IMG/VR virus record: IMGVR_UViG_3300020360_000085
Coordinates: 128,001 to 192,000 of that record
Length of the DNA: 64,000 nucleotides
Direction: 5' to 3' (one strand)
DNA from: a virus
Taxonomy: Duplodnaviria; Caudoviricetes
The notes under the pieces were generated by a model, which saw only the letters and a list, made by a program, of their open reading frames with translations, searched no databases and was not told where the DNA came from. Of the stretch, positions 28,554 to 55,908 are shown one piece after another (position 1 is the first letter of the stretch; every line of letters begins with the position of its first letter). The position numbers were made by a program, and so were the translations under genes.

Positions 28554-28913
28554 ATGAGTACACGTTTGACTAAAGCATTAGAGTTTGCGAATTATCGCAC
28601 GACTTTAAATAACCAGCAATCACAACTAAAAGCAAAAATACAAAACCAATTAAGTTACAGTATTAATGGTGGGTCTTTTACAATCAATAGGGAACTAATA
28701 ACATTCGTTAAATTACTTATTGATGACGGAGAAAAAGAAGCAGTATTGCTTGATATCTATAACAATCCTATTAACATATTACTAGAAAGTTTTTACGAGG
28801 AAATTAAAAGCAGATATTATGAAGCAACAAACGATTACTATGCAGAATATGAAAAACTTCGTAAAGCAAGAAAAGTACATAAAATATTGGACTTAAACGA
28901 TGAAGGAAATTAA
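28554..28913 (+). CDS. Hypothetical protein (119 aa)
   Basis: Clean ORF after the promoter motif, overlapping the next gene; no recognisable catalytic motif. Confidence 0.7.
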   Translation: MSTRLTKALEFANYRTTLNNQQSQLKAKIQNQLSYSINGGSFTINRELITFVKLLIDDGEKEAVLLDIYNNPINILLESFYEEIKSRYYEATNDYYAEYEKLRKARKVHKILDLNDEGN

Positions 28914-29595
28914 TTATCTATTCGATGTAGATGGAACACTTACACCTAGTAGAGGAGTAATCGATAGTGAGTTTAAAAAATGGTTTATAAATTTTGCCTC
29001 TGTTAAAAGTGTAATACTTGTTACGGGCAGTGATAGAGATAAAACACTAGAGCAATTAGGAGAATCCATATATAAAAAATGTAAGAGAGTTTATAATTGC
29101 AGTGGTAATGATGTTTATGAACAAGACAAACAAATAAAATTTAACGAATGGAAACTACCTATAGATGCTCAGCAATGGTTACAATTTAAATTAGATCATA
29201 GTCCATTTGATTTGAGAACAGGGTTACATTTTGAACACAGAACTGGAATGTGTAATTTTAGTGTGGTAGGACGTAATGCAAACGTACAAGAACGCAAACA
29301 ATATTACAATTATGATTGTGATACAAACGAAAGAATAAAAATATCAGAAGCATTTAATAAAAAATATCCTGACTTACAGGCAAAAGTAGGAGGAGAAACA
29401 GGCTTAGATATTTTCCCCATAGGTTGTGATAAAGGCCAAGTATTACAAGACTTTGATATAGATACAATTAAATTTTTTGGTGACAGATGCGACCCTCAGG
29501 GTAATGATTATCCTATTTCAAAATTATTAAAACCACATCAAGTTTATGCTGTAAAGAATTGGAAACAATGTTGGGAGTTTTTACAAAATGTCTAA
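28900..29595 (+). CDS. HAD-IIB phosphomannomutase-like enzyme
   Basis: FDVDGTLTPSR (HAD motif I), LVTGSD, EHRTGMCNFSVVGRNA, GGETGLDIFP.GCDK, FFGD...GNDY; matches the PMM/Sec53-type HAD family. Confidence 0.85.
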   Translation: MKEINYLFDVDGTLTPSRGVIDSEFKKWFINFASVKSVILVTGSDRDKTLEQLGESIYKKCKRVYNCSGNDVYEQDKQIKFNEWKLPIDAQQWLQFKLDHSPFDLRTGLHFEHRTGMCNFSVVGRNANVQERKQYYNYDCDTNERIKISEAFNKKYPDLQAKVGGETGLDIFPIGCDKGQVLQDFDIDTIKFFGDRCDPQGNDYPISKLLKPHQVYAVKNWKQCWEFLQNV

Positions 29596-30472
29596 AGGAT
29601 TTATGATGTTTGCTCATAACAATAGTGAGATAGATTATCTTAAACTTGCAGTTGTAAATGCTTTGCTAATACAAAAAAATTTAGGCGTAAAAAATATAAC
29701 AGTAGTAACAGACCCATTTAGTTTAGAACATGCAGAAAAAACACTAGGAAAAAAATTAATAAAAAAAGCAATTAACAATTTAATTGTTGTAGACAAAGAC
29801 AAAAAATTTAAAAATACTAATATTAGACTTTATAAAGATACAAGTCATACAGTAAAAAATTTATCCTTTTATAATGTAAACAGATGTGATGCATATGATT
29901 TAAGTCCTTACGATGAGACTATATTATTAGATGCAGATTATTTAATTTTAAGTAACACACTAAATCAATGTTGGGGACATAATAATGAACTTATGATGAA
30001 CTGGAAATATCAGGACATAATGTTTGAGAGAAAAGATCCATCATTAAACAGATTATATGATATGGGTATAACAATGTATTGGGCAACTGTGGTTTACTTT
30101 CGTAAAACAGATTATGTGGAAAGTTTTTTTAATTTAGTCAAACATGTTAAAAATAATCCACAATACTACAGAGACTTATATAAGTGGCAAGGTACTCTAT
30201 ACAGAAACGATTACAGTTTTTCTATTGCCGCACATATGATGAGTGGTTTTGTTGATAAAGGAATACCACAGTTGCCTACTACTCTTTATAAAAGTTTTGA
30301 TACAGATGATATACATAGTGCTATTGATAATAATAGTATTATAATGTATTTAGAAAAGCCTAAAGAGCCAGGTAATTTTATTTTAAGTAAATGGTCAGAT
30401 ATGGATCTACATGTTATGAATAAATGGGCAATAAATAGAATTAGTGATAATTTATTGGAGTATGCAAATTAA
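29588..30472 (+). CDS. Glycosyltransferase-like protein (GT-A, DxD)
   Basis: LSPYDETILLDADY motif; N-terminal KGFMMFAHNN..DY.KLA; paralog of 31396..32262. Confidence 0.65.
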   Translation: MSKGFMMFAHNNSEIDYLKLAVVNALLIQKNLGVKNITVVTDPFSLEHAEKTLGKKLIKKAINNLIVVDKDKKFKNTNIRLYKDTSHTVKNLSFYNVNRCDAYDLSPYDETILLDADYLILSNTLNQCWGHNNELMMNWKYQDIMFERKDPSLNRLYDMGITMYWATVVYFRKTDYVESFFNLVKHVKNNPQYYRDLYKWQGTLYRNDYSFSIAAHMMSGFVDKGIPQLPTTLYKSFDTDDIHSAIDNNSIIMYLEKPKEPGNFILSKWSDMDLHVMNKWAINRISDNLLEYAN

Positions 30473-30701
30473 ATTTTTAAAAAAATTAAAAGACTGGATA
30501 GATCCAAACTATTGGGCAAATGAAATAGGCGAAAAAAGTGGCGCCTATGACAAAGCAAGAAACAGCAAATTGAGACAATGGGTAGACAGTTTAGAAGGTT
30601 GGCAATGGTGGGCATGGCAATTAGGTCCTGCACTAATATTTTTTATATTATTAGAGTTAGCCATTAACCAAATAGGAATGACTATGCTACCATGGAGATA
30701 A
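30462..30701 (+). CDS. Small Trp-rich membrane protein
   Basis: GGAG SD before ATG 30462; WQWWAWQLGPALIFFILLELAI hydrophobic segment. Confidence 0.6.
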   Translation: MQIKFLKKLKDWIDPNYWANEIGEKSGAYDKARNSKLRQWVDSLEGWQWWAWQLGPALIFFILLELAINQIGMTMLPWR

Positions 30702-30702
30702 A

Positions 30703-30930
30703 ATGGCAAAAAAATTTATACATGTAAATATGCATAAAATTCGTGCTAACAAAAAACACGGTACTAATGAACCAGTAATTACAGTAAAAGAAGGACGTAG
30801 TAACACTTATGGTCATAGTGTTGAAATACATGGGCCAAGTAAAGTAATGTATGGAGGCAATGACAAGCCTCTACTACCTTGTGGTGCAAGAGTAGTTATA
30901 GAAACAGAAGCAGAGGTAACTATAGAATGA
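30703..30930 (+). CDS. Hypothetical protein (75 aa)
   Basis: Coupled ORF with SD GGAG; no function recognised. Confidence 0.65.
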   Translation: MAKKFIHVNMHKIRANKKHGTNEPVITVKEGRSNTYGHSVEIHGPSKVMYGGNDKPLLPCGARVVIETEAEVTIE

Positions 30931-31403
30931 AAGATCCATTTTTAATTATAGGCTACATGCTATTAGGACTTATGTTAAGTTTTGAAATAAATGCACAACC
31001 TAGTATATATGAAATTAAAAAACATATACAAGATGAACCTTTTGACTTTGTACAAATGAAACAAGATGCAGAAGCATATAAAATTTTGTTGTTTAGAGAA
31101 AGGGAAAGAAGATTACAATTTGTTGAGATAGACAAATATCCAACACCACAAGAACGTAGAAGATACTATATTTTACATGCTATAGATGTTAGTATGACTA
31201 TATGGGCATTAAACAATCGCGACAACATTAGGGAAGGTAATATATTTTTAAGTGACAATCCAAGCAATCAAACATTAATAACAAATAAATTATTAGCAAT
31301 ACCAATTTATCAAAATAGTAATCAGCCACAAGTAGTAGTAATGAATTACATTACAAGTACAGTAATTTTACATAACTTATATGTAATAAACAAATATGAC
31401 TAG
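30927..31403 (+). CDS. Hypothetical protein with N-terminal signal/TM segment
   Basis: ATGA overlap gives start 30927; MKDPFLIIGYMLLGLMLSFEINAQ resembles a signal peptide. Confidence 0.55.
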   Translation: MKDPFLIIGYMLLGLMLSFEINAQPSIYEIKKHIQDEPFDFVQMKQDAEAYKILLFRERERRLQFVEIDKYPTPQERRRYYILHAIDVSMTIWALNNRDNIREGNIFLSDNPSNQTLITNKLLAIPIYQNSNQPQVVVMNYITSTVILHNLYVINKYD

Positions 31404-32262
31404 AGGTTACATAGTAATAGCACAAAACAACGATACTGTTGATTATTTACAACAGGCATATGCCCTTGCACTTAATTTAAAACTTACACAGAGCAAGGTC
31501 AACAGTCTGACAGTATGTGTAGATGCTAAGACTAAAAAACTTATAAAAGCAAAACATAAAGAAGCATTTGATAATATTGTTGATATTCCTTGGCAAGATG
31601 ATGCAAAAGAACAAGATTGGAAGATAAACAACAAATGGAAATATTATTATATGACTCCATATGATGAAACTGTTATATTAGATACTGATATGATATTTCC
31701 TACAGATGTAAGTCATTGGTGGGATATTATGTCTCAACGAGATGTGTGGGCAACTACAAAGGTGAGGACATATAGAGGAGAAATTGTTACAAGTAATTTT
31801 TATAGAAAATATTTTGCGGCAAATAATTTGCCAAATGTATATACAGCATTTTTTTACTTTAAAAAATCAGATTTAGCAAGTGAATTATTTGCAATGATAG
31901 AAATAATTTTTCAACACTGGCAAAGAATGTTTTTTAAATATATGCCTGAGGGTAAGCCAGATTGGCTAAGTGGAGACGTTGCTTATGCTCTTGCTATGCA
32001 ATTACTAGGTATAGAAGCAGATTGTATATTAGAAAATATAGACGAGGTTCCTACATTTATACACATGAAAAGTCATATACAAAATATACCAGACACTAGA
32101 ATTAGTAAAGATTGGACTCAAACATTACCAACTTATTATAATTCTTATAAAGACTTTAAGATAGGAAATTTTCAACAACTGTTTCCATTTCATTATGTCG
32201 AAAAAGACTGGCTAGATAAAAATAAAATACAGCAAATTGAGAAAGATTATGGTATCAAGTGA
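31396..32262 (+). CDS. Glycosyltransferase-like protein (GT-A, DxD)
   Basis: MTPYDETVILDTDM motif; RGYIVIAQNN..DY N-terminus shared with 29588..30472. Confidence 0.65.
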   Translation: MTRGYIVIAQNNDTVDYLQQAYALALNLKLTQSKVNSLTVCVDAKTKKLIKAKHKEAFDNIVDIPWQDDAKEQDWKINNKWKYYYMTPYDETVILDTDMIFPTDVSHWWDIMSQRDVWATTKVRTYRGEIVTSNFYRKYFAANNLPNVYTAFFYFKKSDLASELFAMIEIIFQHWQRMFFKYMPEGKPDWLSGDVAYALAMQLLGIEADCILENIDEVPTFIHMKSHIQNIPDTRISKDWTQTLPTYYNSYKDFKIGNFQQLFPFHYVEKDWLDKNKIQQIEKDYGIK

Positions 32263-32902
32263 AGCAGAAAAAAGACTTAAAAGATTCTTAAATGAAAAAA
32301 ATAAATTTAATAGTTTTACTGATCTCGTTAAACATCAAAAACAAAAAGATAAAACAGTTTGGTTCGACAATGAAGGAAATATTTTACAAATAAGTTCAGA
32401 TTATAAACGTAAAAAAACTGTAAAAGAAAAAAGTGCAGTATTTACACAAGAGCAATTAAGTATATTGGAGGGCAAAGACGTAAATCTATACAGAGTTGTC
32501 CAAGACGCAGAAATTGAAACAGTATTTACAATTGATTTAAAATTAGTAGAAAGTCCTTTTGTAGAAAATGATAAAGAGTTTTTACAACTTATTCCTGAAT
32601 CCAATAGTAAAGTTTTTGATGTAGCAGTTACAAATAAAAATAATAAATTTACAGTACAATTACATAGTAAAATAATAAAAAAATATAAAGACATAGAACC
32701 TAATATTGCAGTAGCAAATGGTAAAAAAGTTTTTAAATTTTATTTTACAAGTAAAAACAACCCTCATTTTATGATTAGCAGTTTAAACATACCTCTATCA
32801 GAACTATTAAAAAAAGAAAAAATTACAAAAAATATATCTAAAAACTTAGATCAATGTAGCATATATACTATAAAACTATTCGATAAATATGTGTGTAGAT
32901 AA
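32237..32902 (+). CDS. Hypothetical Lys-rich protein (221 aa)
   Basis: Long ORF in the operon; very AT-rich; no motif recognised. Confidence 0.6.
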   Translation: MRKIMVSSEAEKRLKRFLNEKNKFNSFTDLVKHQKQKDKTVWFDNEGNILQISSDYKRKKTVKEKSAVFTQEQLSILEGKDVNLYRVVQDAEIETVFTIDLKLVESPFVENDKEFLQLIPESNSKVFDVAVTNKNNKFTVQLHSKIIKKYKDIEPNIAVANGKKVFKFYFTSKNNPHFMISSLNIPLSELLKKEKITKNISKNLDQCSIYTIKLFDKYVCR

Positions 32903-32925
32903 AAATACAAACACAGGACGACAGA

Positions 32926-33924
32926 ATGGCAAAGATCGATGTTACAGAATTAGACATATTCTATATTTCTTATGATGAACCCAACTGCGAAGAGCATTGG
33001 GCAGACTTACTAAACAAAGTACCTTGGGCAAAAAGGGTACACGGCGTAAAAGGATTTGACGCCGCACATAAAGAAGCCGCACAACAATCTGAAACTGACC
33101 GATTTATCACAGTAGATGGTGATAATATTGTTATGGATGATTTCTTTGAACAAGTACTAGATGTTCCAGACCAAGATCATGATGGAAACAATATTTCAGA
33201 AAGTATTTTTAGTTGGAATGCCAAAAATATTCTAAATGGTCTAGTATATGGTAATGGAGGCCTAAAATGCTGGCCTACCCAATATGTATTAGATATGAAA
33301 ACACACGAAGCGGCAGACGACGGTGAAGGTATGGAGTTTTGTTGGAAACTTAACTACATACAACTGAACGATACGTTTTCAGAAGTACATCAAACGGCAA
33401 GTCCTTTCCAAGCCTTTAGAGCAGGATTTAGAGAAGGTGTTAAAATGAGTTTGGATCAAGGAACCAGAATTCGTGCTGATGAATTTAAAGATAAAATATG
33501 GTGGCAAAATTACAACAGACTGCAAACATGGTGTAACATAGGTACAGATGTTGAAAATGGTTTGTGGGCAATTTATGGTGCAAGACTTGGATGTCAAATG
33601 ACTGTACTAAGTGATTGGGATACAAACAGTATAAGTGATTATGACTGGTTTAAAAAGTTTTTTAATAATGATATTTTGCCAAGATTTCCAGGAGATGAAG
33701 TTTGTAAATATTCAAAAGTAACATGGAATCCAGAAATGCTTTATATTGCTATACAAGATTTAGGAGTAACACTAAATGAAGGCATTAATGAAATGATGTT
33801 ATTTGATCCTAACAGAAAAATGTGTAAGTTTTTTAAAACAACTTATGTAAATCCAAGACGTTGGGGAGTAATGATAAGAGAAAAGCAAATTCAAGAATTA
33901 CTGGAAAAAGGATTAATACAGTAA
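32926..33924 (+). CDS. Glycosyltransferase-like protein (GT2-like GT-A)
   Basis: DIFYISYDEP...VHGVKGFDAAH...FITVDGDN (DxD)...YGNGGLKCW...AFRAGFREGVKM. Confidence 0.7.
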   Translation: MAKIDVTELDIFYISYDEPNCEEHWADLLNKVPWAKRVHGVKGFDAAHKEAAQQSETDRFITVDGDNIVMDDFFEQVLDVPDQDHDGNNISESIFSWNAKNILNGLVYGNGGLKCWPTQYVLDMKTHEAADDGEGMEFCWKLNYIQLNDTFSEVHQTASPFQAFRAGFREGVKMSLDQGTRIRADEFKDKIWWQNYNRLQTWCNIGTDVENGLWAIYGARLGCQMTVLSDWDTNSISDYDWFKKFFNNDILPRFPGDEVCKYSKVTWNPEMLYIAIQDLGVTLNEGINEMMLFDPNRKMCKFFKTTYVNPRRWGVMIREKQIQELLEKGLIQ

Positions 33925-34634
33925 TGAGTAAAATTTGGTTTTTTGGTGATAGTTTTGCCCATCCACCTTACATAAAAGATTTGTCTGAGGACAAAAATAA
34001 TTATTGGTGGGGTACAAAATTGTGTCAAAAGCATAATTTAACACCTAGAGTTATGTCAGAGCCTGGTAGTAGTTTAACATATACACACGAACAATTATTA
34101 AGATTTAAAAATCTTATAAATGAAGGAGATTTAGTTTTTATTTTTTACACTACTCCTTACAGAATGGATTTTGGTAAAAAATCTGTAAGTATAATTTCAA
34201 ATGGTATGACTCCTGCAGGAAAATTAATACCTAGTATAGACCCTGAACATGTAGTATCAGATGAAAGATTAAATAAAATTTTAAATATGTATATTGCATT
34301 AGGCTTAGATTTAGAAAGACATCTTAATCAACAATATGCTACAGTAAATTATATACAACATGTTTTAGTACCAGACATTTTACAAAAAAGAAAGCCTAAA
34401 AAAATATTAGAATTTTACTCTTTTAGGAGAACACAATTATGTCATAGTAATGTTGTTAATCCAGAAGAAAGTTTGCTTAAATTTTTACCCGAAGCGATGG
34501 AATGGATAAAAGATATTTGTGCAAAAGATAATGTTAATGTACAAGAAATTTTTTCTGATCCTTCACATTTTGGTAATGCTAAAGTAGGAGATTATAACGA
34601 AAAATATTTAGAATATATTGAAAGTTTATTATGA
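33924..34634 (+). CDS. SGNH/GDSL-type hydrolase
   Basis: Block I FFGDSF at the N-terminus and DPSH (DxxH) near the C-terminus. Start moved to ATG 33924 (TAATG coupling). Confidence 0.65.
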   Translation: MSKIWFFGDSFAHPPYIKDLSEDKNNYWWGTKLCQKHNLTPRVMSEPGSSLTYTHEQLLRFKNLINEGDLVFIFYTTPYRMDFGKKSVSIISNGMTPAGKLIPSIDPEHVVSDERLNKILNMYIALGLDLERHLNQQYATVNYIQHVLVPDILQKRKPKKILEFYSFRRTQLCHSNVVNPEESLLKFLPEAMEWIKDICAKDNVNVQEIFSDPSHFGNAKVGDYNEKYLEYIESLL

Positions 34635-36166
34635 GTAATTATGACCAGGCCGCAGATAAGGCCAAAAAACAGTTAGACAAAATAAGTCCAACTATGTGCT
34701 ATGCAAAATGGTCACAAGTTTCTATGCATTTACATAACGGCATGACTCATAGTTGTTATCATCCGCCTACACATAAAGTTGATTTAGAAGAATTAAAAGA
34801 AAATCCTACAGCACTTCATAATACAAAAGAGAAAAAAGAACAACGTAGACAAATGTTAGCAGGTGAAAGGCCAGAAGGGTGTAGTTACTGTTGGCGTATA
34901 GAAGATGTTGGTGGAAGAAGTGATCGTGTGTATCGTAGTGGCGAATATTGGGCTCAAAATGCTAGAGAAGAAATAGCAGAAGCAGGTGCAGATGGAAATA
35001 TAAATCCACGTTACGTTGAAGTAAACTTTAATCAAGCATGTAATTTAAAATGTAGTTATTGTAGTCCACATTTAAGTAACACTTGGGAGAAAGAAATAAA
35101 ACAATTTGGACCATACAATATAGTCCAAGGAGAACATAATAATTTAAATAGTTTAGGTAAAACTGGACTTATGCCATTAAAAATTTCACAAGCAGATAAT
35201 CCATATGTTACAGCCTTTTGGAAGTGGTGGCCTGATCTTTACAAAAATATAGAAGTTTTTCGTATGACAGGAGGAGAGCCACTAATGGATAGCAACACAT
35301 TTAAAGTATTAGACTATGTGTATAAAAATCCAAATGCCTGGCTTGAAATATCTGTTACATCAAACATGTGTCCACCTAAGCCAAAACTAATGGACATGTT
35401 TATAGAATCGCTACAAAGATTAGAAGAGATACAAATTTGGGAAGACCCAGAAAAGTTTAATCCAAACTCGGGGAACAACTGGTATGTAGCACCAGCATGT
35501 AAGAACTTTGCAACATTTGTATCATGTGATGGATATGGACCTCAAGCAGAGTATATGCGTAATGGTATGGACTTTAAAATGTTAGATAAAAATGTAAACA
35601 GAATCTTAGAGGATACAACTCATAGCACAATTACATTTATTAATACATTTAATGTACTAAGTTTAACAAGTTTGAAAGAATACTTACAATGGATTTTAGA
35701 ACTTAGAGATAGATATGCTAAGGATAGACAAGGAATAAAATATATTCCTATACCAGACAATGGCGGACATAAGCACCCAGATTATGAAGTAAGACCTAAA
35801 CAAAGAATATGGTTTGATATTCCATTGCTTAGAGCACCACTTTGGCAATGTATTCAAATAATGCCTGATTATTATCAGAGTTATTTGGAAGAAGCAATAG
35901 CATTTATGGAATTAAATAGAGCAGATGAAGTAAATATAGACTATAGAGGATTTAAAGATTTTGAAATAGATAAAGTAAGACGAAATTTAGAGTGGATGAA
36001 GGCCGGCTCTATTATGGATAAAGATGAATTACTTAAAGCAAGAGCAAATTTTTTTAAATTTTTTAGTCAGCATGATGAAAGAAGAAAAACAAACTTCTTA
36101 CAAGTTTTTCCAGAAATGGAAGATTGGTGGAATATTTGTAAAGAAGCAGAAGCATTAATAATATGA
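34631..36166 (+). CDS. Radical SAM enzyme with N-terminal SPASM/twitch-like Cys cluster (rSAM1)
   Basis: CNLKCSYC, TGGEPL; N-terminal CYAKW...SCYHPP...CSYCW. Confidence 0.9.
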   Translation: MSNYDQAADKAKKQLDKISPTMCYAKWSQVSMHLHNGMTHSCYHPPTHKVDLEELKENPTALHNTKEKKEQRRQMLAGERPEGCSYCWRIEDVGGRSDRVYRSGEYWAQNAREEIAEAGADGNINPRYVEVNFNQACNLKCSYCSPHLSNTWEKEIKQFGPYNIVQGEHNNLNSLGKTGLMPLKISQADNPYVTAFWKWWPDLYKNIEVFRMTGGEPLMDSNTFKVLDYVYKNPNAWLEISVTSNMCPPKPKLMDMFIESLQRLEEIQIWEDPEKFNPNSGNNWYVAPACKNFATFVSCDGYGPQAEYMRNGMDFKMLDKNVNRILEDTTHSTITFINTFNVLSLTSLKEYLQWILELRDRYAKDRQGIKYIPIPDNGGHKHPDYEVRPKQRIWFDIPLLRAPLWQCIQIMPDYYQSYLEEAIAFMELNRADEVNIDYRGFKDFEIDKVRRNLEWMKAGSIMDKDELLKARANFFKFFSQHDERRKTNFLQVFPEMEDWWNICKEAEALII

Positions 36167-36426
36167 AAGACAGAAATAAATTTTTAGAATTAGCAAAAAA
36201 AGGTATAGTTACAGTAGAATTTAGAAAAATAGATACACAAGAATTAAGAATTATGCCCTGTACGTTAAATAATAAATTAAGCAATGGAAAAGTTCCAGAC
36301 GGAATGAAACAAAATGCAAACAATGATGATTTTGCAGTATGGTCTCTAGATAAAAATGCATGGAGAAGTTTTAGAACTAATACTGTAGAAGATTGGTATG
36401 AAGGATATCCTAAAGAGGAAAATTAA
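36163..36426 (+). CDS. Small SH3/WYL-like fold protein (DUF2693-like)
   Basis: VTVEFRKID...R.MPCTLN...VWSLDKNAWRSFR pattern typical of T4-like phage DUF2693 proteins. Confidence 0.65.
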   Translation: MKDRNKFLELAKKGIVTVEFRKIDTQELRIMPCTLNNKLSNGKVPDGMKQNANNDDFAVWSLDKNAWRSFRTNTVEDWYEGYPKEEN

Positions 36427-38087: not shown

Positions 38088-38841
38088 ATTATTTGCTAAC
38101 ATTGGAGTAGGACACGAAAACGATTGGCAAACAATTAAAGGCAGAGTTGTTGCGGCCGCTCAGTGTAATGCTGATGCAATAGTAATTACAAAGTCAACGC
38201 CAGATATTATTATACCAAAGCATAAAAGATATGTAGCAATGGAAAGTAAATGGGGAGAACTGCCATATATAGAAGTAGCAAATAAAAGTGAATTAGACGA
38301 TTTAACTGTTAAAAAATTAAATGACTTAGTAGAGCAAATAGGCATACCAGTAATATGGTGCATTACAGATATACAGGCAGGAGATTGGGTATTAGAACAT
38401 ACAAATTGCAAAGATATTAAAATACATTTTGACTCTCAAAATGATTTAGATTTATTAGAGTTTTGTTATAATAATTTTGAAAAGGTTAGATATTGTGGTA
38501 ATGAAGAAAATATTAAAATATTATATAATATGTATCCTAGTAAATCAGTAAGGAGAGAACATTTATTTTTATATCATACTACAATTAAATTTCCTCCACA
38601 AGTAGAAGAATTAAAATTAAGTAGAATAGACAATTTAAAAAAATTATTTCCTGATGCAAATATAGGATTTGAAGGACGATGTGAATCAATATATCCTGAT
38701 TGTGCTGTTGCACTTAAAGATGTAAATTATATTGAAAAATATTTGGGGGACGAAGAAGAATTTAATCCTGCTGTTTTAAGTCATCAAAAATTTTATGACT
38801 TTTTTGTAAATATGAACCAACTAGAGATAGCAAATGGCTAA
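38080..38841 (+). CDS. Degenerate NeuB/SpsE-like (N-acetylneuraminate synthase family) protein
   Basis: LFANIGVGHEND...AAAQCNADAI, LYHTTIKFPP..EELKL..I..LKKLF...IGFEGR, AVAL...IEKY follow the NeuB TIM-barrel pattern with altered catalytic residues. ATG at 38080. Confidence 0.65.
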   Translation: MIKLFANIGVGHENDWQTIKGRVVAAAQCNADAIVITKSTPDIIIPKHKRYVAMESKWGELPYIEVANKSELDDLTVKKLNDLVEQIGIPVIWCITDIQAGDWVLEHTNCKDIKIHFDSQNDLDLLEFCYNNFEKVRYCGNEENIKILYNMYPSKSVRREHLFLYHTTIKFPPQVEELKLSRIDNLKKLFPDANIGFEGRCESIYPDCAVALKDVNYIEKYLGDEEEFNPAVLSHQKFYDFFVNMNQLEIANG

Positions 38842-40273: not shown

Positions 40274-40280
40274 ATAAATA
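40274..40280 (+). promoter_or_regulatory. Late promoter motif ATAAATA (leadered)
   Basis: In the only ~100-bp gap of the island, upstream of SD CAGGAG and ATG 40337. Confidence 0.6.
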
Positions 40281-40336
40281 GTGTAGTAATATGACTTTGT
40301 TATATTACACACATATTAACACAACAGGAGATAAAG

Positions 40337-49076: not shown

Positions 49077-49111
49077 TTACCAAATAAGTGCTGTAAAATA
49101 AAGCATCTTAA

Positions 49112-49118: not shown

Positions 49119-49123
49119 TTGTT

Positions 49124-49717
49124 ATGTCAGAGCCTATTGTAATAGACAATTTTTTACCTAAAAATGTTTTAGAAAAGATTGATCATTTTTACAAAACTGC
49201 ATCATTAAAATTATCTATGGGAGAAATAGATGATACACCTACTTTTTTACAATGTTCTATAGGTGTTGAGGAACTTCTAGGTGTATTTGAGTTAGATACT
49301 TATATAGAAAAACATTTAAATAATACATATAAAAATTGTACATTTAAAAATTTAGAAAGATTTTATATCAATATACTTACTAATGCAGAAAAAAATAAAA
49401 TGGTAGGGCATAGGGACATAAATGAGAGCGATTTAACAGAAGATGATTTTTATTTAATTAGTATAATTTTTTTAAATCCAGAAGGAAATAAAGATACAGG
49501 TATTTACATTAACGAAAATTATTATGAGGACGTTTATAACAGAATGATTTTATTTGATGGTACAAATTGGCATAAAGCGGTTGCTCCACAGGACGACTAT
49601 GTAAGAATTACATTTTATGCAAATTTTTCAAATCGTATATCTAAAAATAATGTATTTAGACAATTAAAAAATGCAGATGCATGTTCAAAATATTTTAAAA
49701 ATGTTTATAGGAAATAA
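49124..49717 (+). CDS. 2OG-Fe(II) oxygenase superfamily protein
   Basis: VIDNFL start, HRD (HxD), NRMILFDG..WH (distal His), downstream R in RITF. Confidence 0.8.
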   Translation: MSEPIVIDNFLPKNVLEKIDHFYKTASLKLSMGEIDDTPTFLQCSIGVEELLGVFELDTYIEKHLNNTYKNCTFKNLERFYINILTNAEKNKMVGHRDINESDLTEDDFYLISIIFLNPEGNKDTGIYINENYYEDVYNRMILFDGTNWHKAVAPQDDYVRITFYANFSNRISKNNVFRQLKNADACSKYFKNVYRK

Positions 49718-49718
49718 G

Positions 49719-49904
49719 ATGGAAGAGAGAAATCAGAAACATAAACAACAAGATTTAACAGAACTTAATAGTGATGGTAATCGAGAAAGAGGTAGAGAAG
49801 GTGAAGACTTATCTAATGAAATACAACTTACAAAAGAAGAAGAAGAGCAGTTGAAAAAGAAATTAGAAAAATTAAGACAGCAAGATCCTTTTATATATAG
49901 ATGA
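49719..49904 (+). CDS. Small charged hypothetical protein (61 aa)
   Basis: ATG 49719 right after the oxygenase stop; ATGA overlap with the next gene; E/K/R-rich, ends DPFIYR. Confidence 0.55.
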   Translation: MEERNQKHKQQDLTELNSDGNRERGREGEDLSNEIQLTKEEEEQLKKKLEKLRQQDPFIYR

Positions 49905-51415
49905 GAATTTTAGGATTAAGTTTTGGTTTTCATGATGCAGGTGCTTGTATGCTTGACTTTAAAAACATAGAGTTTGCAAGTCATTCAGAAAGATATACCA
50001 AAGTAAAAAACGATCCATGGATAAATCATGACCTAATAGATGCGGCAATAGAAAATGGAAAGCCTGATATAATAGTTTTACACGAAAAAGCATGGGCAAA
50101 AAGAATTCGTAATTTACTAAATGCAAATTTTAGAGCCCTAAGAGAACCAACTCAAAGACAATGGATTAAAAAATTTTATCCCCAACTGAAAGATATACCT
50201 ATAAAAGATTATTGGCATCATGAAACACATGCGGCCGCAGGTGTATTAAGTAGTAATTTTGATGAGTGTGCTGTAATGGTAATAGATGCTATTGGAGAAT
50301 TTAATACAGCAACAATTTGGCAATGGAAAGATGGTAATTTAAAAAAATTACATAGTGTAAATTTTCCAAGCAGTTTAGGTTTATTTTATAGTGCTGTAAC
50401 AAGTCATGTAGGTCTTAAACCTATGGAAGACGAATATATTTTAATGGGAATGGCCGCATATGGTAAAACAGAAAACTGGAAACCATTATCAAGAAAAATG
50501 GGTAAGAAATTTTTTAAATTTAAACATCCATGGATAAGTCATAGGCAAACAATAGACGGAATTTATAATTTACAAAGAGGACTACCTAAAAACAGTTTTG
50601 TAGGTGTTGATGAATTTGATATGGCCGCGGCCGCACAAAATCAAGTTGAACAAAGGGTAAAAGCATTTGCTCAACATGCCAAAGAAATTACGGGTAGTAA
50701 TAATTTAGTTTACATGGGAGGAGTAGCACTTAATTGTGTAGCCAATAGTAAACTATTTGATATTTTTAAAAATATTTTTATAATGCCTAACCCAGGAGAT
50801 TGTGGGAGCAGTTTAGGTGCGGCCGCACTTGAACTTTACAATCAAACTGGAGAAAAAATAAATTGGAAAACGCCTTACACAGGATACAATATACCTGGAA
50901 AATATCCAATTAAAAAGGCATTAGCAAGTTTAAAGGCGGGGGAACTATTTGGTATAGCAAATGGCAAAGCGGAATTTGGGCCACGTGCATTAGGCAATAG
51001 AAGTTTATGTGCAGATCCTAGAGGACCAGACGTTAAGGATAAAATGAATGTAATTAAAAAACGTCAAAAGTTTAGACCATTCGCACCAATGATATTGGAA
51101 GAACATGTGCATGATTATTTTGAAATGCCAGGTGGCATTACTCATGCACCGTATATGCAATTTGTTGCAAAGTGCAAAAATCCAGAAGAGTTTCCTGCTA
51201 TAATACATGAAGACGGTACAAGCCGTGTTCAAACAGTTCGCAAGGAAGAACATCCTGATTTACACGATCTGCTATCAAAATTTTACAAACAGACAGGTTG
51301 CCCTATGTTACTTAATACAAGTTTAAACATTAAAGGACAGCCAATTGTAAATGATGAAAAAGACGCAGAAGCCTTTGCTCAACATTATGGAGTAAAGGTA
51401 CATGTCAGAGATTGA
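49901..51415 (+). CDS. Carbamoyltransferase (NodU/CmcH/TobZ family)
   Basis: GFHDAG, HHETHAAA, DAIGE, SLGLFY, MGMAAYG, GGVALNC, PGDCG, EFGPRALGNRS, KFRPFAP, LLNTSLN. Confidence 0.92.
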   Translation: MRILGLSFGFHDAGACMLDFKNIEFASHSERYTKVKNDPWINHDLIDAAIENGKPDIIVLHEKAWAKRIRNLLNANFRALREPTQRQWIKKFYPQLKDIPIKDYWHHETHAAAGVLSSNFDECAVMVIDAIGEFNTATIWQWKDGNLKKLHSVNFPSSLGLFYSAVTSHVGLKPMEDEYILMGMAAYGKTENWKPLSRKMGKKFFKFKHPWISHRQTIDGIYNLQRGLPKNSFVGVDEFDMAAAAQNQVEQRVKAFAQHAKEITGSNNLVYMGGVALNCVANSKLFDIFKNIFIMPNPGDCGSSLGAAALELYNQTGEKINWKTPYTGYNIPGKYPIKKALASLKAGELFGIANGKAEFGPRALGNRSLCADPRGPDVKDKMNVIKKRQKFRPFAPMILEEHVHDYFEMPGGITHAPYMQFVAKCKNPEEFPAIIHEDGTSRVQTVRKEEHPDLHDLLSKFYKQTGCPMLLNTSLNIKGQPIVNDEKDAEAFAQHYGVKVHVRD

Positions 51416-51629
51416 TTGGCATAAAATACACAGCAAATTGCAAGGCACATGTACAACATGTGGAGGAGAGTTGCCTAACCATAAGGGTGTATGCCCTGTT
51501 GAAGGCCAGCAACTACTAGCAAGATTAGAACAGATTGACAATAGTGTAAAACATGTAGGCGATATTGCTGAAGACTTGATTAAAAGTTATAAAAAAATGA
51601 AAAGGTCATTTAAAAATAAAAATGTTTGA
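51402..51629 (+). CDS. Small Cys/His protein, possible zinc-binding
   Basis: CTTC..ELPNHKGVC; overlaps both neighbours. Confidence 0.55.
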   Translation: MSEIDWHKIHSKLQGTCTTCGGELPNHKGVCPVEGQQLLARLEQIDNSVKHVGDIAEDLIKSYKKMKRSFKNKNV

Positions 51630-54600
51630 TATATTTTACATAGGAGATAATCCCAAATTAAAAGAACTGTTGCCGTTTGCAAAACAGATAAATGATGTTG
51701 GCGAAATACAATCAAAAACAAGAATGTGTTGGTTAATAGAACCAAATATAGAAATAGTAGATATAGATATTTTTAATTTTAGGCCTGATATGTATGACAT
51801 GAAATATGAACATGTTTGGAAATGGGATTCAAATAATTATGGTGGTATAAGATTACTGCCTAAAACACAAAATGATGGTGTAAAAGAAATCAATAAAATT
51901 GTTTGTAAAAAAAGTTTTGAAATTTTAAATACTAAAACTCCTGCAAAGTATTTTGATAATAATCCTTATGCTACACATGTATGGTGCATAGATAAAGATT
52001 ATAAATTACCTGAAGATATAAATTGGGCACCTGATAATTTTGAACCAGATTTTATACATAGTTTTCATTTAAGAGGTCAATTAGAACATAAGTACCCTGC
52101 AGAAGAAGGCGGCATCAAATTATATCCTAAAGATTGGAAGACAGCAGATACAAAATATCATGGATTTTTAGATGCACAAATAATTTTTCCAGTATTTTAT
52201 GTAAAAGATGTAGAAGATTATTCACAACGCAATATCTTTTTAGATGATTATGTTTGGCTTGTAGATTCTAAATATAAAATAAATGCTAATTCGTTAGATT
52301 GGGTTCCTAATCCTTTTGAGGATAAAATGATACACAGTTTTAGAATGCCTTACCAACTTACAGAAAAATATCCAGACGAAATGGGCGGTATTAGATTAGT
52401 ACCTAAAGATTGGAAGACAGCAGAAACTAAAATACACAAAGATTGTCCTATTGAAGATGAAAATTATGATGTATTTTACACAAACAAAAAGTTTAATGCA
52501 GAAACATTTGAGTATTATGCTAAACGATCTGAAACAGATTGGTTTTGGGTAGTAGATAGAGACTATGATTTTAATGGAAAACTATTATATGTTCCTGCAA
52601 GGCATGAACGTGATTATATACATGTTTTTAAATGGGGACTAGAACATAGATATAGGCCTGAAATAACAGAACTTTGGGACGACAGAGTTTCAGGTATATT
52701 TCTAGTTCATAAAGAGTTTGACTTCACAAAAAGAAAACTGCATACAGATATAGTGCCTGTAAAATACGATATTTTCTTTACTAATGACATAAATGATTAT
52801 GTTACCTATAGTAGAAAAAGCAGAACAGATGCTTTTTGGTTAGTTGATGAAGAACATGTATTAACTGAAAATATAGATTATGTTCCAGAATATAGTGAGC
52901 AAAAGTATATTAATATTTTTAAAATACCTAAGCAATTAGAACACAAATACCCACGAAGTGTTACAAATGTAAGTGATAATCGTTGTGGTGGAATAAAACT
53001 TGTACCTAAAGATTTTAATACAGAAGATGTAAAATATCAAGGTTTACTAACAGATATAGAAATTATAGAATATGAAAAATTTGATAATGAAAAAGAAGGT
53101 AGGTCAAAGAGTAAAAACGATTGGTTTTGGGTTATAGACCCTGATGTAGAAGTTCTTGAGGACTTTAACTTTGACTTTATACCAGATACATGGGACGAAG
53201 GCAAAACTCATGTATGGCAAAAACTAAATCCAGTAACTGGCAGACAGTATGATTATGGTGGTGTTAGTTTATTTCCTAAGGTTGCACAAACAAAAGGAAG
53301 ACCCAAATACATAAGAGAACCAGCATGTACACAAAAAGAATATCCTGTATATAATCTTACTGCTTCTGACTATAAAAACGGCTTACAGAGCATTTACGAG
53401 CGTCTGACAGGGCAAACAAATACAGAAATGTATTGGGTAGTAGATGCTTTTACACGGCTGTCTGAGGACTTTGACTTTAGTTACTATCCTACACAATGGG
53501 ATAAAAATAATGTACATGTATTTGCAAATGAAGATGGAGAATACAGAAATGTACGTTTAGTGCCTAAAAAAACATTTTTAGAAAAACAATTTACAGACAA
53601 GGAAATAGCAAACAATAGTTTTGATAATTTAAAAGAAATGAATACAATAGCAAGTTTAAAACCTAAATGGCCTGTAGTTAAGTTAGATAATTTATCTGCT
53701 AAAGATTTTTACGATAAATTAAAAGATATTAAAGAGCCATTTGTTTGGACCATAGATCCAGATGTAAGAGAAAATTTTAAAGTTTTAAATGAAGGGTATA
53801 TGCCTGAAATTACAAATGTAGATAAAATACATTCTTGGCAAAAACAAAATTCATTAAACAATAAAGTGCATGGATATGGCGGCCTACGACTATGGCCCAC
53901 TAATATAGATTTTAAATCTATAAAATCAGAGCAACTGAAACTCAATAGATTTAAAAATTTACAATATGTAAAAGAAATAGGTTCTATAAGTAAACCATTT
54001 GACGTGGTTTACATAAGTTATCATGAACCATTTGCAGACAAAAATTTTACTAAATTACAGGATCATATTAGAAGCACAGATTCAACACTAAAACTTATAT
54101 GGATAAGAGATGTAAAAGGTATTTTTGAAGCACATAAACAAGGTGCTAATAGAGTACAAAGTAAAATGTTTTGGGTAGTAGATGCAGATGCAGTAATAGA
54201 CCAAGATTTTAAATTTGATTATATACCAGATGTATATGATGAAGAAGTTGTCCATGTTTGGGCGAGTAAAAATCCAATAAATGAACTTGAATATGGATAT
54301 GGAGGCGTAAAACTATTTCCAACAGAAATGGTTCAAAACGCAAACACTTGGGGGATTGATTTCACAACTGGTCTTAGTAATAGATTTAAGTCTATGCCAC
54401 AGGTTAGTTGTGTTACCAAATTTAATACAGATGCATTTAGCACTTGGAGGAGTGCATTTCGTGAATGTGTAAAATTAACACTTAACGAAGATGAGGAAAG
54501 TAAACAGCGATTACAAGCCTGGTTAAACACTAGGGGGAAAGGAAATTATACTAGGTCAGCAGTAAAAGGAGCATTAGAGGGGAACCAATTTGCAGAAGCA

Positions 54601-54675
54601 AATAAAAATAATGTAACTGAATTAAATAAAATAAATGATTATGAGTGGTTAAATGGACAATATAATAAGTCTTAA
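51622..54675 (+). CDS. Repeat protein of nine GT-like modules, the last a full GT-A domain (1017 aa)
   Basis: Nine copies of W-x-(I/V)-(D/E)...P...H...GG(I/V/L)xLxP(K), some degenerate; C-terminal FDVVYISYHEP...VKGIFEAH...FWVVDADA...AFRECVKL is homologous to 32926..33924. Confidence 0.75.
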   Translation: MFDIFYIGDNPKLKELLPFAKQINDVGEIQSKTRMCWLIEPNIEIVDIDIFNFRPDMYDMKYEHVWKWDSNNYGGIRLLPKTQNDGVKEINKIVCKKSFEILNTKTPAKYFDNNPYATHVWCIDKDYKLPEDINWAPDNFEPDFIHSFHLRGQLEHKYPAEEGGIKLYPKDWKTADTKYHGFLDAQIIFPVFYVKDVEDYSQRNIFLDDYVWLVDSKYKINANSLDWVPNPFEDKMIHSFRMPYQLTEKYPDEMGGIRLVPKDWKTAETKIHKDCPIEDENYDVFYTNKKFNAETFEYYAKRSETDWFWVVDRDYDFNGKLLYVPARHERDYIHVFKWGLEHRYRPEITELWDDRVSGIFLVHKEFDFTKRKLHTDIVPVKYDIFFTNDINDYVTYSRKSRTDAFWLVDEEHVLTENIDYVPEYSEQKYINIFKIPKQLEHKYPRSVTNVSDNRCGGIKLVPKDFNTEDVKYQGLLTDIEIIEYEKFDNEKEGRSKSKNDWFWVIDPDVEVLEDFNFDFIPDTWDEGKTHVWQKLNPVTGRQYDYGGVSLFPKVAQTKGRPKYIREPACTQKEYPVYNLTASDYKNGLQSIYERLTGQTNTEMYWVVDAFTRLSEDFDFSYYPTQWDKNNVHVFANEDGEYRNVRLVPKKTFLEKQFTDKEIANNSFDNLKEMNTIASLKPKWPVVKLDNLSAKDFYDKLKDIKEPFVWTIDPDVRENFKVLNEGYMPEITNVDKIHSWQKQNSLNNKVHGYGGLRLWPTNIDFKSIKSEQLKLNRFKNLQYVKEIGSISKPFDVVYISYHEPFADKNFTKLQDHIRSTDSTLKLIWIRDVKGIFEAHKQGANRVQSKMFWVVDADAVIDQDFKFDYIPDVYDEEVVHVWASKNPINELEYGYGGVKLFPTEMVQNANTWGIDFTTGLSNRFKSMPQVSCVTKFNTDAFSTWRSAFRECVKLTLNEDEESKQRLQAWLNTRGKGNYTRSAVKGALEGNQFAEANKNNVTELNKINDYEWLNGQYNKS

Positions 54676-55339
54676 AAGTTGGAAGGAAGTTACAGAATAT
54701 ATAGATAATGGATTCTGGAAACCTACACCTAGTTACTTTGAACACATTGTACAACATAATAGTTATTATCCAAATCATGCTTTTAGCAAAGGACAATTAG
54801 CAAGTAAGAGTTGGCTACTAGAAAAATTACACAAAATTAATTGGAGACATCAACCTAATAGCGATGTAGTGGTAATTTTAGGCAGTTGGATAGGTGCAAT
54901 AGTAGAACCTTTGCATAAAACTTTTGATATTGAAAGAATTTACGGTATAGATTTAGATGCTACAGCAATAGAAAAATCAGAAAAGTTAAATCAAAAGTTT
55001 GTTCAAGACAATTGGAAATATAAAGGTGTTGTACATGACGTTGACTTAATAGAGTGTGATAATATGCAATTTCAAACAGGTGGAGAACTTATAAATTGTA
55101 AACCAAACTGGATTATTAATACAAGTTGTGAACACATGAGCACACTTTGGTATGATACAGTTGATAGCAATCAACTAATTGTAATGCAAACAAATAATTC
55201 TAAAGAATTTGACGGTCATATTAATCCATGTTATACTCTCGATGAAATGCAGGAAAAATATCCTTTAAAAGAAACACTATTTATTGGTGCTTTAGAAACT
55301 CCTGCTTACACAAGATTTATGCAAATAGGCTACAAATAA
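54653..55339 (+). CDS. Class I SAM-dependent methyltransferase-like protein
   Basis: VVILGSWIG (motif I variant), IYGIDLD, INTSCEHM. Confidence 0.7.
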   Translation: MDNIISLKSWKEVTEYIDNGFWKPTPSYFEHIVQHNSYYPNHAFSKGQLASKSWLLEKLHKINWRHQPNSDVVVILGSWIGAIVEPLHKTFDIERIYGIDLDATAIEKSEKLNQKFVQDNWKYKGVVHDVDLIECDNMQFQTGGELINCKPNWIINTSCEHMSTLWYDTVDSNQLIVMQTNNSKEFDGHINPCYTLDEMQEKYPLKETLFIGALETPAYTRFMQIGYK

Positions 55340-55908
55340 TGAAAACAAAAGTTATAAATTTTTATGGCGGTCCTGGATCAGGAAAAAGTACTAAAGCCGC
55401 AGGACTATATTACAAAATGAATATGGCTGGATTTAGTGTAGAATTAAATAATGAGTTTGCAAAAGAATGCGTATGGGAAGACAATGTTCCTATGTTAAAG
55501 GACCAATTGTTTATGTTAGCACATCAGCACAGAAAAATTTTAAGATTAGTTGATAAAGTAGAATATGTAATTACAGATTCTCCTGTAATGTTAAGTGGAA
55601 TATATAGAGAGTTGTATAATGGTCCTTTATATAGTGATCTAATAGATAAGTTAGCAAGAGAATGCTATGACAAATATGAAAACATAAATTTTATGTTAGA
55701 CAGACCTAAAAAAATATTTAATCAAAAGGGGAGAGCACAAAACGAACAGGGTAGTATTAATATAGATAATGCAATAATAGAAATGTTTAAAACCGAAAAA
55801 CTTCCGTTTTTTTGGTTAAAAGGTCTAGAAGAAGAGGCTGTAGATATTGCTTTTAAATATATTGCTAAAAAAGGTTCTAAAGAACAATGGGAAAAATATT
55901 TATTTTAA
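55339..55908 (+). CDS. P-loop NTPase/kinase (NadR/AAA_28-like)
   Basis: VINFYGGPGSGKST Walker A; ITDSP; GRAQ lid-like motif. Confidence 0.75.
   Translation: MKTKVINFYGGPGSGKSTKAAGLYYKMNMAGFSVELNNEFAKECVWEDNVPMLKDQLFMLAHQHRKILRLVDKVEYVITDSPVMLSGIYRELYNGPLYSDLIDKLARECYDKYENINFMLDRPKKIFNQKGRAQNEQGSINIDNAIIEMFKTEKLPFFWLKGLEEEAVDIAFKYIAKKGSKEQWEKYLF

Follow-up and report, generated by a model that had tools for sequence, protein, structure and literature searches.

Positions 28554–55908 of the 64,000-nucleotide stretch of phage DNA analysed here (the window; bases 128001–192000 of the 250,519-bp IMG/VR viral record IMGVR_UViG_3300020360_000085) hold a clustered and conserved block of biosynthetic genes, hereafter the island, that is rich in glycosyltransferases and tailoring enzymes. 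We propose, tentatively, that this island encodes a late, wholly cytoplasmic system in which a glycan, probably one borne by virion proteins, is assembled and then edited, and which includes a branch where a carbamoyl group is carried on a tyrosine. The proposal draws on eight radical S-adenosylmethionine (SAM) enzymes of a single family, four glycosyltransferases of the GT-A fold, an O-carbamoyltransferase with an unannotated micro-protein partner, and a position beside baseplate and fibre genes that is kept in distant phages. The record comes from a large marine T4-like phage with a GC content of ~31%, and its completeness is estimated by CheckV at 66%.

The island comprises 26 open reading frames (ORFs) of at least 85 amino acids, all on the plus strand; an ORF scan of the same interval found no credible minus-strand gene. 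Eighteen of the 25 junctions between neighbouring ORFs are overlaps and one is a 1-nt gap. Because small ORFs fill three of the six larger gaps (30703–30930, 49719–49904 and 51402–51629), the count of about 30 co-directional, mostly overlapping genes given in an earlier note on this DNA is fair. That note had also described the island as biosynthetic, and a comparison with 35 related loci shows the block to be conserved, in more than 30 marine viral contigs: a fixed core recurs among the loci, and much of it is found, in the same gene order and at 30–52% identity, in the culturable Ralstonia phage RsoM2USA (343.8 kb). The core consists of the following genes.

28554–28913, plus strand: conserved 119-aa helical protein without cysteine; 23 of 35 loci; 34% identical to RsoM2USA gp354
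29588–30472, plus strand: GT8-fold (GT-A, retaining type) glycosyltransferase, copy 1; 27 of 35 loci
31396–32262, plus strand: GT8-fold glycosyltransferase, copy 2, a paralogue of the 29588 protein (hhalign 98.2%); 28 of 35 loci; 39% identical to RsoM2USA gp352
32237–32902, plus strand: conserved lysine-rich 221-aa protein; 24 of 35 loci
32926–33924, plus strand: GT2-like GT-A glycosyltransferase; 29 of 35 loci at 65–89% identity; 52% identical to RsoM2USA gp350
34631–36166, plus strand: radical SAM A; 328 bits on NF033640; CxxxCxxC at residue 137; 30 of 35 loci; 35% identical to RsoM2USA gp349
36426–38087, plus strand: radical SAM B, with an acidic C-terminal extension; 304 bits; 31 of 35 loci; 51% identical to RsoM2USA gp202
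38834–40237, plus strand: radical SAM C; 300 bits; 32 of 35 loci
44229–45365, plus strand: 378-aa protein inside the radical SAM run, possibly GT10-like; homologues in 18 of 35 loci
49901–51415, plus strand: NodU/CmcH/TobZ-type O-carbamoyltransferase; Pfam 1e-53 and 4e-35; PDB matches NovN (2e-57), GdmN and TobZ
51622–54675, plus strand: 1017-aa protein of about nine GT-A-like modules, from an alignment consensus and an AlphaFold (AF2) model
54653–55339, plus strand: Rossmann-type methyltransferase-like protein with GxWxG and acidic-loop motifs; 30% identical to RsoM2USA gp347

Around this core other genes come and go, namely the phosphomannomutase, the NeuB-like gene, extra radical SAM enzymes, methyltransferases, 2-oxoglutarate (2OG) oxygenases, a fatty-acid-desaturase-type enzyme and DUF6071 proteins. 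The number of radical SAM copies per locus ranges from 1 to 12, and one clade has three radical SAM enzymes only, with the carbamoyltransferase block inverted.

The radical SAM enzymes are the most abundant component. Eight island proteins carry CxxxCxxC, at residues 119–159, and all match one NCBIfam model, NF033640 (N_Twi_rSAM), at 300–400 bits against a curated cut-off of 170, which confirms the eight reported earlier. Besides A, B and C of the core, they are the following.

41673–43004, plus strand: radical SAM D (variable set); 310 bits on NF033640
43004–44251, plus strand: radical SAM E (variable set); 358 bits
45341–46576, plus strand: radical SAM F; 400 bits
46573–47766, plus strand: radical SAM G; 362 bits
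47766–49076, plus strand: radical SAM H; 355 bits

A four-cysteine auxiliary (twitch) domain, with invariant C20, C39, C80 and C83, lies N-terminal, ahead of CxxxCxxC, and five of the eight proteins have an N-terminal match to the Pfam SPASM domain. At E 1.7e-4 this N-terminal domain can be aligned with the twitch that BtrN has at its C terminus, and the radical SAM core aligns weakly with the sugar decarboxylase BlsE (E 1.3e-4); a single-sequence PDB search with one of the enzymes gave no match. The twitch enzymes BtrN, NeoN, HygY and AprD4 act on carbohydrates. For one island radical SAM, over 1000 homologues were retrieved at E <1e-10, most of them in ocean metagenomes, and no bacterial relative was found in genome contigs with radical SAM B as the sole query. 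A scan of the whole record agrees with the eight assignments and adds a ninth, shorter NF033640 protein (326 aa, 212 bits), which is encoded outside the window and far from the island, on the minus strand (G000:C1:236671–237582). The 339,794-bp record of a relative (L030, genome G001) has 10 members that exceed the cut-off, from 11 match rows because one ORF is matched in two halves, and also two weaker matches. Its NF033640 genes lie at both contig ends (329–338 kb and 4–14 kb), so the assembly was cut inside the island, as expected of a circularly permuted genome.

The glycosyltransferases were assigned largely at the level of the fold. An AF2 model of the 29588 protein (predicted local distance difference test (pLDDT) 76, predicted template modelling score 0.79) matches glycogenin, LgtC, the UGGT catalytic domain and XXYLT1 with a Foldseek probability of 1.0 and, among reviewed proteins, the pneumococcal GlyA/D/F enzymes, which extend protein O-glycans, and lipopolysaccharide (LPS) glucosyltransferases. 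The GT-A fold is thus nearest GT8 structures, and the DxD motif is present, with D115 invariant and D117 kept in at least 90% of sequences. Neither this protein nor its paralogue at 31396 matches Pfam PF01501 even at E 5, unlike the GT8 genes of a Vibrio phage cluster discussed below, which do. A profile of the GT8-like family retrieved only SseK1 from PDB sequences (E 0.07–0.1), a match not used as evidence.

The 32926 protein is the best conserved outside the radical SAM enzymes and shares homology with the last 225 residues of the 51622 protein (hhalign 98.6%); the matching clusters in a language-model search (Atlas) are named GT2-like. For the GT2-like assignment, the GT-A fold comes from the model of the 51622 protein, the motifs DGD and DADA are present, and the Pfam PF00535 matches stay below the cut-off (E 0.0046 and 0.17). 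When the 51622 protein was aligned with 31 homologues, it resolved into about nine repeats of a ~100-residue module (W-x-x-D ... P..E..H.F ... GG..L.P), of which only the last (~793–1017) is a full GT2-like domain with DADA. Its AF2 model (pLDDT 83) best matches multi-GT-A proteins, namely the chondroitin polymerase K4CP, the collagen enzyme LH3, Mimivirus R699, heparosan synthase and PBCV-1 A64R. The homologues span ~1000–1950 aa and their length tracks the number of modules, which therefore differs between lineages. Two GT8-fold and two GT2-like enzymes thus account for the four GT-A proteins that had been proposed. The GT10-like protein proposed alongside them did not gain the same standing: for 44229, an Atlas score of 0.80 to GT10 clusters is a weak lead. 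The idea that 44229 is a degenerate radical SAM was rejected, as it has no CxxxCxxC and no NF033640 match.

The carbamoyltransferase scores 122 and 181 bits on Carbam_trans_N and Carbam_trans_C against cut-offs of 24 and 27. Six diverged homologues all retain H11, D12, H106, H107, H110, D129 and D300, and we take these histidines and aspartates to have the metal-binding and catalytic roles of their TobZ counterparts. The 183-nt 'gap' ahead of the gene is filled by a further ORF.

49719–49904, plus strand: 61-aa micro-protein ending DPFIYR; its stop codon overlaps the carbamoyltransferase start codon (ATGA)

This ORF precedes the carbamoyltransferase in 13 of 13 close loci. A wider survey covered 80 further viral loci of the same carbamoyltransferase subfamily (46–85% identity) and counted any ORF on the strand of the enzyme that ends in DP[FY]xY plus at most one residue; 59 loci have one, which abuts the enzyme start in 35, whereas the opposite strand has none in any of the 80. 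The N-terminal part of the micro-protein varies from long and acidic to ~33 aa and basic, and the last 16 residues are nearly unchanged. It is charged throughout, and no hydrophobic helix is visible in its sequence. Its matches in the databases number at least 149 protein clusters at E ≤0.001, and the 120 of these that were listed include no informative name or Pfam domain; a literature search for DPFIY found nothing relevant. In RsoM2USA an ORF of 36 aa ending DPFIYK, absent from the GenBank annotation, lies between gp201 and gp200 (L009, ~20.9–21.0 kb). No such peptide was found beside P-SSM2-type or C48C1 carbamoyltransferases.

Structure prediction suggests that the two proteins associate. 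The predicted complex of carbamoyltransferase and micro-protein scores 0.80, and the best of three controls scores 0.00. Of 78 solved complexes, 51 attain the 0.80 mark, as do 2 of 108 mismatched pairs; at least 66% of contacts are common to the runs, and the pLDDT of the micro-protein is 61. The predicted interface pairs micro-protein residues 31–61 with enzyme residues 9–10, 40–43, 67–95, 130–131 and 225–227. In the predicted pose, a helix (residues 31–53) lies on the Kae1-like domain and Tyr60 touches residues 10 and 131, which adjoin the invariant H11/D12 and D129. The model thus supports a predicted docking of the tyrosine tail in the active cleft. A 75-aa ORF with a CxxC...C pattern (51402–51629) occupies the gap 3′ of the carbamoyltransferase gene, and relatives L011 and L013 have a small ORF of 48–89 aa at the matching gap.

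The genes directly upstream bear on the acceptor. These are as follows.

1109–5638: baseplate wedge protein (phrog_10646)
5638–24348: virion structural protein, a single 6236-aa ORF directly after the baseplate wedge gene (phrog_10938)
25040–26890: fibre-like protein
26945–27991, plus strand: 348-aa fibre-like protein; Ser + Thr 24%, Gly 12%; ATAAATA at 26907

These neighbours show that the island was correctly said to start right after the tail genes, and the 26945 protein is a candidate glycan acceptor. In 22 loci a homologue of the latter lies directly before the island, upstream of the 28554 homologue, and RsoM2USA has one as gp355. In that phage the order is baseplate wedge ORF362, the 2541-aa structural ORF361 (the counterpart of the 6236-aa virion protein), gp355 and then gp354 to gp347, the counterparts, in turn, of 28554, both GT8-fold genes, a small gene, the GT2-like gene, radical SAM A, a single GT2-like domain and a 54653-like gene. 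Its flanking ORF356, ORF359 and ORF361 were found in virions by mass spectrometry (PMC8504454). The RsoM2USA homologues of radical SAM B (51%) and the carbamoyltransferase (46%) are encoded at a distance of 95 kb, in the company of three DUF6071 genes.

Two further groups of phages show related arrangements. In the minimal clade, a gene for a 653-aa protein with Glyco_transf_25 (6e-23), PLOD glycosyltransferase (1.4e-59) and weak 2OG oxygenase domains lies between a fibre gene and the 26945-like gene (L037:990–2951; also L038, L039, L040, L043 and L044). The architecture is that of the collagen lysyl hydroxylase/glycosyltransferase; no collagen repeats, the substrate for such an enzyme, were found in the contigs of those relatives, and the PLOD-like gene is absent from the present genome. 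In Vibrio phages of the K566 group (L010, OZ196521.1, 159–170 kb), four N-twitch radical SAM genes are interleaved with two GT8 genes and one GT4-like gene, and neither a carbamoyltransferase nor a DPFIY peptide is found in the cluster; an independent lineage thus also links the N-twitch family to glycosyltransferases. A carbamoyltransferase 30% identical to that of the island is encoded in Prochlorococcus phage P-SSM2 (L047, 236–241 kb), between two tail-fibre-like genes and among a heptose-nucleotide set (phosphoheptose isomerase, sugar kinase, nucleotidyltransferases and epimerase).

The island also carries expression signals of the T4 late type, as follows.

28507–28530, plus strand: terminator-like hairpin between the island and the preceding gene
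28542–28548, plus strand: ATAAATA, 12 nt 5′ of the first island gene

Exact ATAAATA, the core of the T4-type (N)ATAAATA promoter, lies 12–63 nt before four island genes, at 28542, 30431, 32883 and 40274. The motif is depleted on the plus strand of the window (9 observed, 43 expected) and genome-wide (101 observed, ~225 expected), and 59% of the 101 copies fall within 80 nt upstream of an ORF start, compared with 4% of random positions; it behaves as a promoter signal throughout the genome. Among the late motifs proposed before, 28542 and 40274 hold, whereas 49112 is only a GTAAATA variant; 30431 and 32883 are new. Sigma-70-like matches show no excess (76, compared with 67 ± 9 in shuffles), in line with the earlier statement that no clear sigma-70 promoter is present. 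From the motifs and the biology of T4, late expression of the island is inferred. Short marine metatranscriptome contigs from two studies map across parts of the island at 90–100% identity; they record presence in RNA libraries, not timing, and DNA carry-over is possible.

The remaining genes of the island are listed here with their evidence.

28900–29595, plus strand: HAD-type phosphomannomutase (accessory); Pfam PMM 2.3e-26; 6 of 35 loci
33861–34634, plus strand: SGNH-like protein, lineage-specific; GDS at residue 29 and DPSH at 233 (GDS and DxxH motifs only)
36163–36426, plus strand: WYL_2 small beta-barrel protein (accessory); Pfam 3.7e-7; 10 of 35 loci
38077–38841, plus strand: short NeuB-like phosphoenolpyruvate-condensing domain, 254 aa (accessory); Pfam NeuB 1.7e-13; 11 of 35 loci
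40274–41671, plus strand: ATAAATA (40274), then a UDP-glucose/GDP-mannose dehydrogenase (40337–41671); Pfam; 23 of 35 loci
49124–49717, plus strand: 197-aa lineage-specific protein; HxD...H...R, seen by eye, suggests a 2OG oxygenase; phrog_274 1.8e-11
55339–55908, plus strand: AAA_28 P-loop NTPase or kinase, the last gene (accessory); Pfam 5.2e-9; also at the end of locus L013

Pfam matches substantiate the three precursor-supply genes named in the earlier note (phosphomannomutase, NeuB-like and UDP-sugar dehydrogenase), although the NeuB-like protein is only 254 aa long and lies far under the NCBIfam cut-offs for NeuB and PseI. The phosphomannomutase and NeuB-like genes are variable accessories and not core. 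The tailoring set fared unevenly: the carbamoyltransferase and the P-loop protein are supported by Pfam, and the methyltransferase (sub-threshold matches, E 0.03–0.5), the SGNH esterase and the 2OG oxygenase are known from motifs or sub-threshold matches only. No Pfam or PDB match was found for 33861, whose membership of DUF6071 was rejected (hhalign probability <1%). The 49124 protein likewise gave no Pfam or PDB match, nor a homologue in related loci, and its PHROG label, 'DNA endonuclease V', is not trusted. Family-profile searches returned no significant match for 28554 and none for 32237; instead of a pathway enzyme, the former may be a chaperone for fibres. A 75-aa ORF (30703–30930), below the 80-aa cut-off, fills the 177-nt gap between 30444 and 30879. 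At its far end the island is met by a converging minus-strand gene (55900–58335) for an 811-aa FG-GAP/VCBS-repeat protein.

Taken together, these components suggest the following pathway. The two GT8-fold enzymes, the GT2-like 32926 protein and the multi-module 51622 protein would build an oligosaccharide from host nucleotide sugars, with optional topping up of precursors by the phage phosphomannomutase, UDP-sugar dehydrogenase and NeuB-like protein. The three core and five extra N-twitch radical SAM enzymes would then perform C–H chemistry on the sugars (epimerization, dehydration, oxidation or decarboxylation), a proposal made because BtrN, NeoN, AprD4 and BlsE do so on carbohydrates. The methyltransferase-like and oxygenase-like proteins and the carbamoyltransferase would finish the product. 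The carbamoyl group might pass via the penultimate tyrosine of the micro-protein, predicted to lie in the carbamoyltransferase cleft, to an SGNH-type protein (33861 here, DUF6071 in relatives) that would hand it on, in what would be a soluble version of the DltX/PatA relay. DUF6071 proteins carry GCS, GGSxN and DHP motifs and travel with the micro-protein in relatives. The acceptor, judged from the conserved gene neighbourhood only, would most likely be a virion protein of the upstream baseplate and fibre module, such as the Ser/Thr/Gly-rich 26945 protein. Circumstantial findings favour this choice: the baseplate–fibre–island order is kept in very distant phages, late-type motifs are common to fibre and island genes, in one clade the PLOD-type insertion, of a protein-glycosylating kind, falls exactly at this spot, and the enzymes resemble those that glycosylate giant-virus capsids and fibrils. 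An exported host polysaccharide is disfavoured, as a hydropathy scan found no membrane helix in the conserved island enzymes and the family matches of island proteins include neither a flippase nor a polymerase nor a transporter. A bolder version, which we regard as doubtful, is that the NF033640 enzymes edit sugars after their attachment to a phage virion protein, lineages swapping paralogues to write a glycan of their own, and that a soluble, MBOAT-free carbamoyl-tyrosine shuttle runs from the TobZ-type enzyme via the DPFIY micro-protein to an SGNH or DUF6071 protein.

Several points weigh against a virion glycan edited in this way. NF033640 is a named family without an assigned substrate or reaction, and a literature search on the family name found no study of its function. 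The peptide-modifying enzyme SkfB and viperin score as well as BtrN and BlsE, and SkfB is among the nearest solved relatives. The methyltransferase, oxygenase and GT10 assignments are weak, and that of SGNH is at the level of motifs. As to the co-occurrence with tail genes that the earlier note had suggested surveying, the core lies beside baseplate and fibre genes in relatives and in RsoM2USA, but neither the K566 cluster nor the RsoM2USA carbamoyltransferase locus is beside structural genes; the tail-gene neighbourhood may reflect only inherited gene order. The docking of the micro-protein is a prediction. Moreover, the likeness to acyl-tyrosine shuttles is partial. In MBOAT–SGNH pathways, the invariant tyrosine of a C-terminal FxYxxF carries an acyl group, which an SGNH transferase subsequently receives; the motif belongs to DltX or, in the form FIYANF, to PatA itself (PMC12148441). 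The phage micro-protein has only F-I-Y plus one residue, without the xxF, and is soluble, with no membrane helix; six of its variants gave no match to Pfam DUF5989 (SxtK type) at E up to 10, and no MBOAT is among the Pfam matches of island proteins. For these reasons the micro-protein is not filed as a member of that family, although it may work like an acyl-tyrosine shuttle.

The same tyrosine-ended peptide, being invariant, makes a peptide-derived product a serious, if unlikely, rival. The micro-protein would then be the precursor or scaffold of a product resembling mycofactocin or a peptide that is ribosomally made and post-translationally modified (RiPP), in which the radical SAM enzymes modify F-I-Y (for example, to a cyclophane or another cross-link) before glycosylation, methylation and carbamoylation. 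Mycofactocin combines a tyrosine-ended peptide, a SPASM radical SAM enzyme, a GT2 enzyme and a methyltransferase. As in a RiPP precursor, the small ORF has an invariant C terminus and a variable N terminus and sits in a cluster rich in SPASM/twitch radical SAM enzymes, which accompany it in 35 of 41 peptide-positive loci by a first count. Likewise, in the compact RsoM2USA locus the peptide stands together with the carbamoyltransferase, radical SAM B and three DUF6071 genes, and the island radical SAM enzymes have weak NCBIfam matches to peptide maturases. Yet the peptide core stays constant although radical SAM copy numbers run from 1 to 12; 23 loci have radical SAM enzymes without a peptide of the first count; and the Vibrio clusters combine such enzymes with glycosyltransferases and have neither peptide nor carbamoyltransferase. 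Furthermore, the peptide is predicted to bind the carbamoyltransferase and not a radical SAM enzyme (only that pair was run), and the Pfam, NCBIfam and PHROG matches of island proteins include no RRE/PqqD domain, leader protease or exporter.

If the glycan were instead one of the host envelope (LPS core, O-antigen or capsule precursors), remodelled from the cytoplasm to block superinfection or alter released debris, the LPS glucosyltransferases and LgtC among the GT8-fold relatives and the heptose-nucleotide setting of the P-SSM2 carbamoyltransferase would find a ready place. We consider this quite unlikely. Family matches and hydropathy reveal no membrane protein, flippase, polymerase, ligase or lipid-carrier transferase in the island, a lytic T4-like phage with late-type promoters would have little time left to remodel the surface, and phages that share this core infect very different hosts (marine, Ralstonia) with differing surface glycans.

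A free, soluble small glycoside, aminoglycoside-like or nucleoside-sugar-like and serving as metabolite, signal or inhibitor, seems improbable to us. The twitch radical SAM enzymes, O-carbamoyltransferase, methyltransferase and dehydrogenase do mirror the tailoring of aminoglycosides and nucleoside antibiotics; the closest solved carbamoyltransferases are NovN, GdmN and TobZ, and BtrN and BlsE are among the nearest radical SAM enzymes. Nevertheless, no cyclitol synthase, nonribosomal peptide synthetase, polyketide synthase, resistance gene or exporter is found among the family matches, and a multi-module glycosyltransferase of 1000–1950 aa suggests a polymer or oligomer.

Last, decoration of a modified base in phage DNA by the glycosyltransferases, carbamoyltransferase and radical SAM enzymes has a precedent in a phage carbamoyltransferase that acts on 5-hydroxymethylcytosine (5hmC) in DNA and co-occurs with a deoxycytidine monophosphate (dCMP) hydroxymethylase, a thymidylate-synthase homologue; carbamoyltransferases on unmodified contigs sit beside glycosyltransferases (MetaGPA, eLife 2021; PMC8670742). 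Despite the P-loop protein at the island end, the DNA ligase gene that adjoins the RsoM2USA carbamoyltransferase locus and the strongly basic short forms of the micro-protein, such hypermodification is very improbable: searches with PF00303 detected no thymidylate-synthase homologue in either the 250-kb record or the 91%-complete 340-kb relative G001, and PF02511 (ThyX) is missing from the 250-kb record; moreover, the motifs are of the late type, the P-loop gene lies outside the conserved core and the Pfam matches of the island include no nucleotide-metabolism family, as the earlier note had stated.

The reading that we favour, a glycan assembled and edited in the cytoplasm and probably borne by virion proteins, has counterparts among known systems. 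The capsid glycans of PBCV-1 (A064R), the Mimivirus fibril clusters (R699/L230) and the glycosylation of mycobacteriophage capsids and tail tubes likewise involve virus-encoded soluble GT-A enzymes, some of them multi-domain, beside structural genes, and Foldseek places the 51622 model beside PBCV-1 A64R and Mimivirus R699, as well as LH3 and K4CP. Tailoring by methylation is also part of the chlorovirus, Mimivirus and mycobacteriophage systems. To our knowledge, phage-encoded virion glycosylation is known from few systems, none with radical chemistry, and none of the virion glycosylation systems above is known to include a radical SAM enzyme, a carbamoyltransferase or a tyrosine-tailed micro-protein. 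Literature searches for phage radical SAM enzymes with a carbamoyltransferase or glycosyltransferase, and for this type of island, returned nothing relevant. What is new here is the modular glycosyltransferase, the fold-level glycosyltransferase assignments, the synteny with RsoM2USA, the negative test for a DNA-type context, and the survey and predicted docking of the micro-protein.

The individual enzymes can be compared in the same way. The island radical SAM enzymes share with BtrN and its like a gene setting of sugar pathways. In the BtrN-type radical SAM enzymes the twitch is C-terminal, whereas in the island enzymes it is N-terminal, and the similarity is too low for a transfer of reaction. 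NovN, GdmN and TobZ share both Pfam domains with the island carbamoyltransferase (E 1e-44 to 2e-57) as well as the invariant metal-binding and catalytic histidines and aspartates; no micro-protein has been described there, whereas the island subfamily has a translationally coupled DPFIY micro-protein. The 5hmC carbamoyltransferase of MetaGPA is phage-encoded and of the same superfamily, and its hydroxymethylase partner is absent here and from the near-complete relative. In the DltX/PatA shuttles the resemblance lies in F-I-Y at the extreme C terminus, as in Neisseria PatA, in a partner enzyme that activates an acyl-type group and, at the level of motifs, in SGNH-like genes of the same clusters; those shuttles carry acyl groups, whereas the group on the phage micro-protein would be carbamoyl. 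Its tyrosine tail recalls the acyl-tyrosine relays of cell-wall acylation.

The island is common in abundant marine jumbo phages, with up to a dozen NF033640 members, and a glycan on fibres or baseplate would bear on host recognition, defence against proteases and grazers, and virion stability in the sea. The same core is present in the culturable RsoM2USA, which makes these readings directly testable. If the bolder version is true, it would give NF033640 its first function and provide a cytoplasmic, MBOAT-free counterpart of the DltX/PatA relay.

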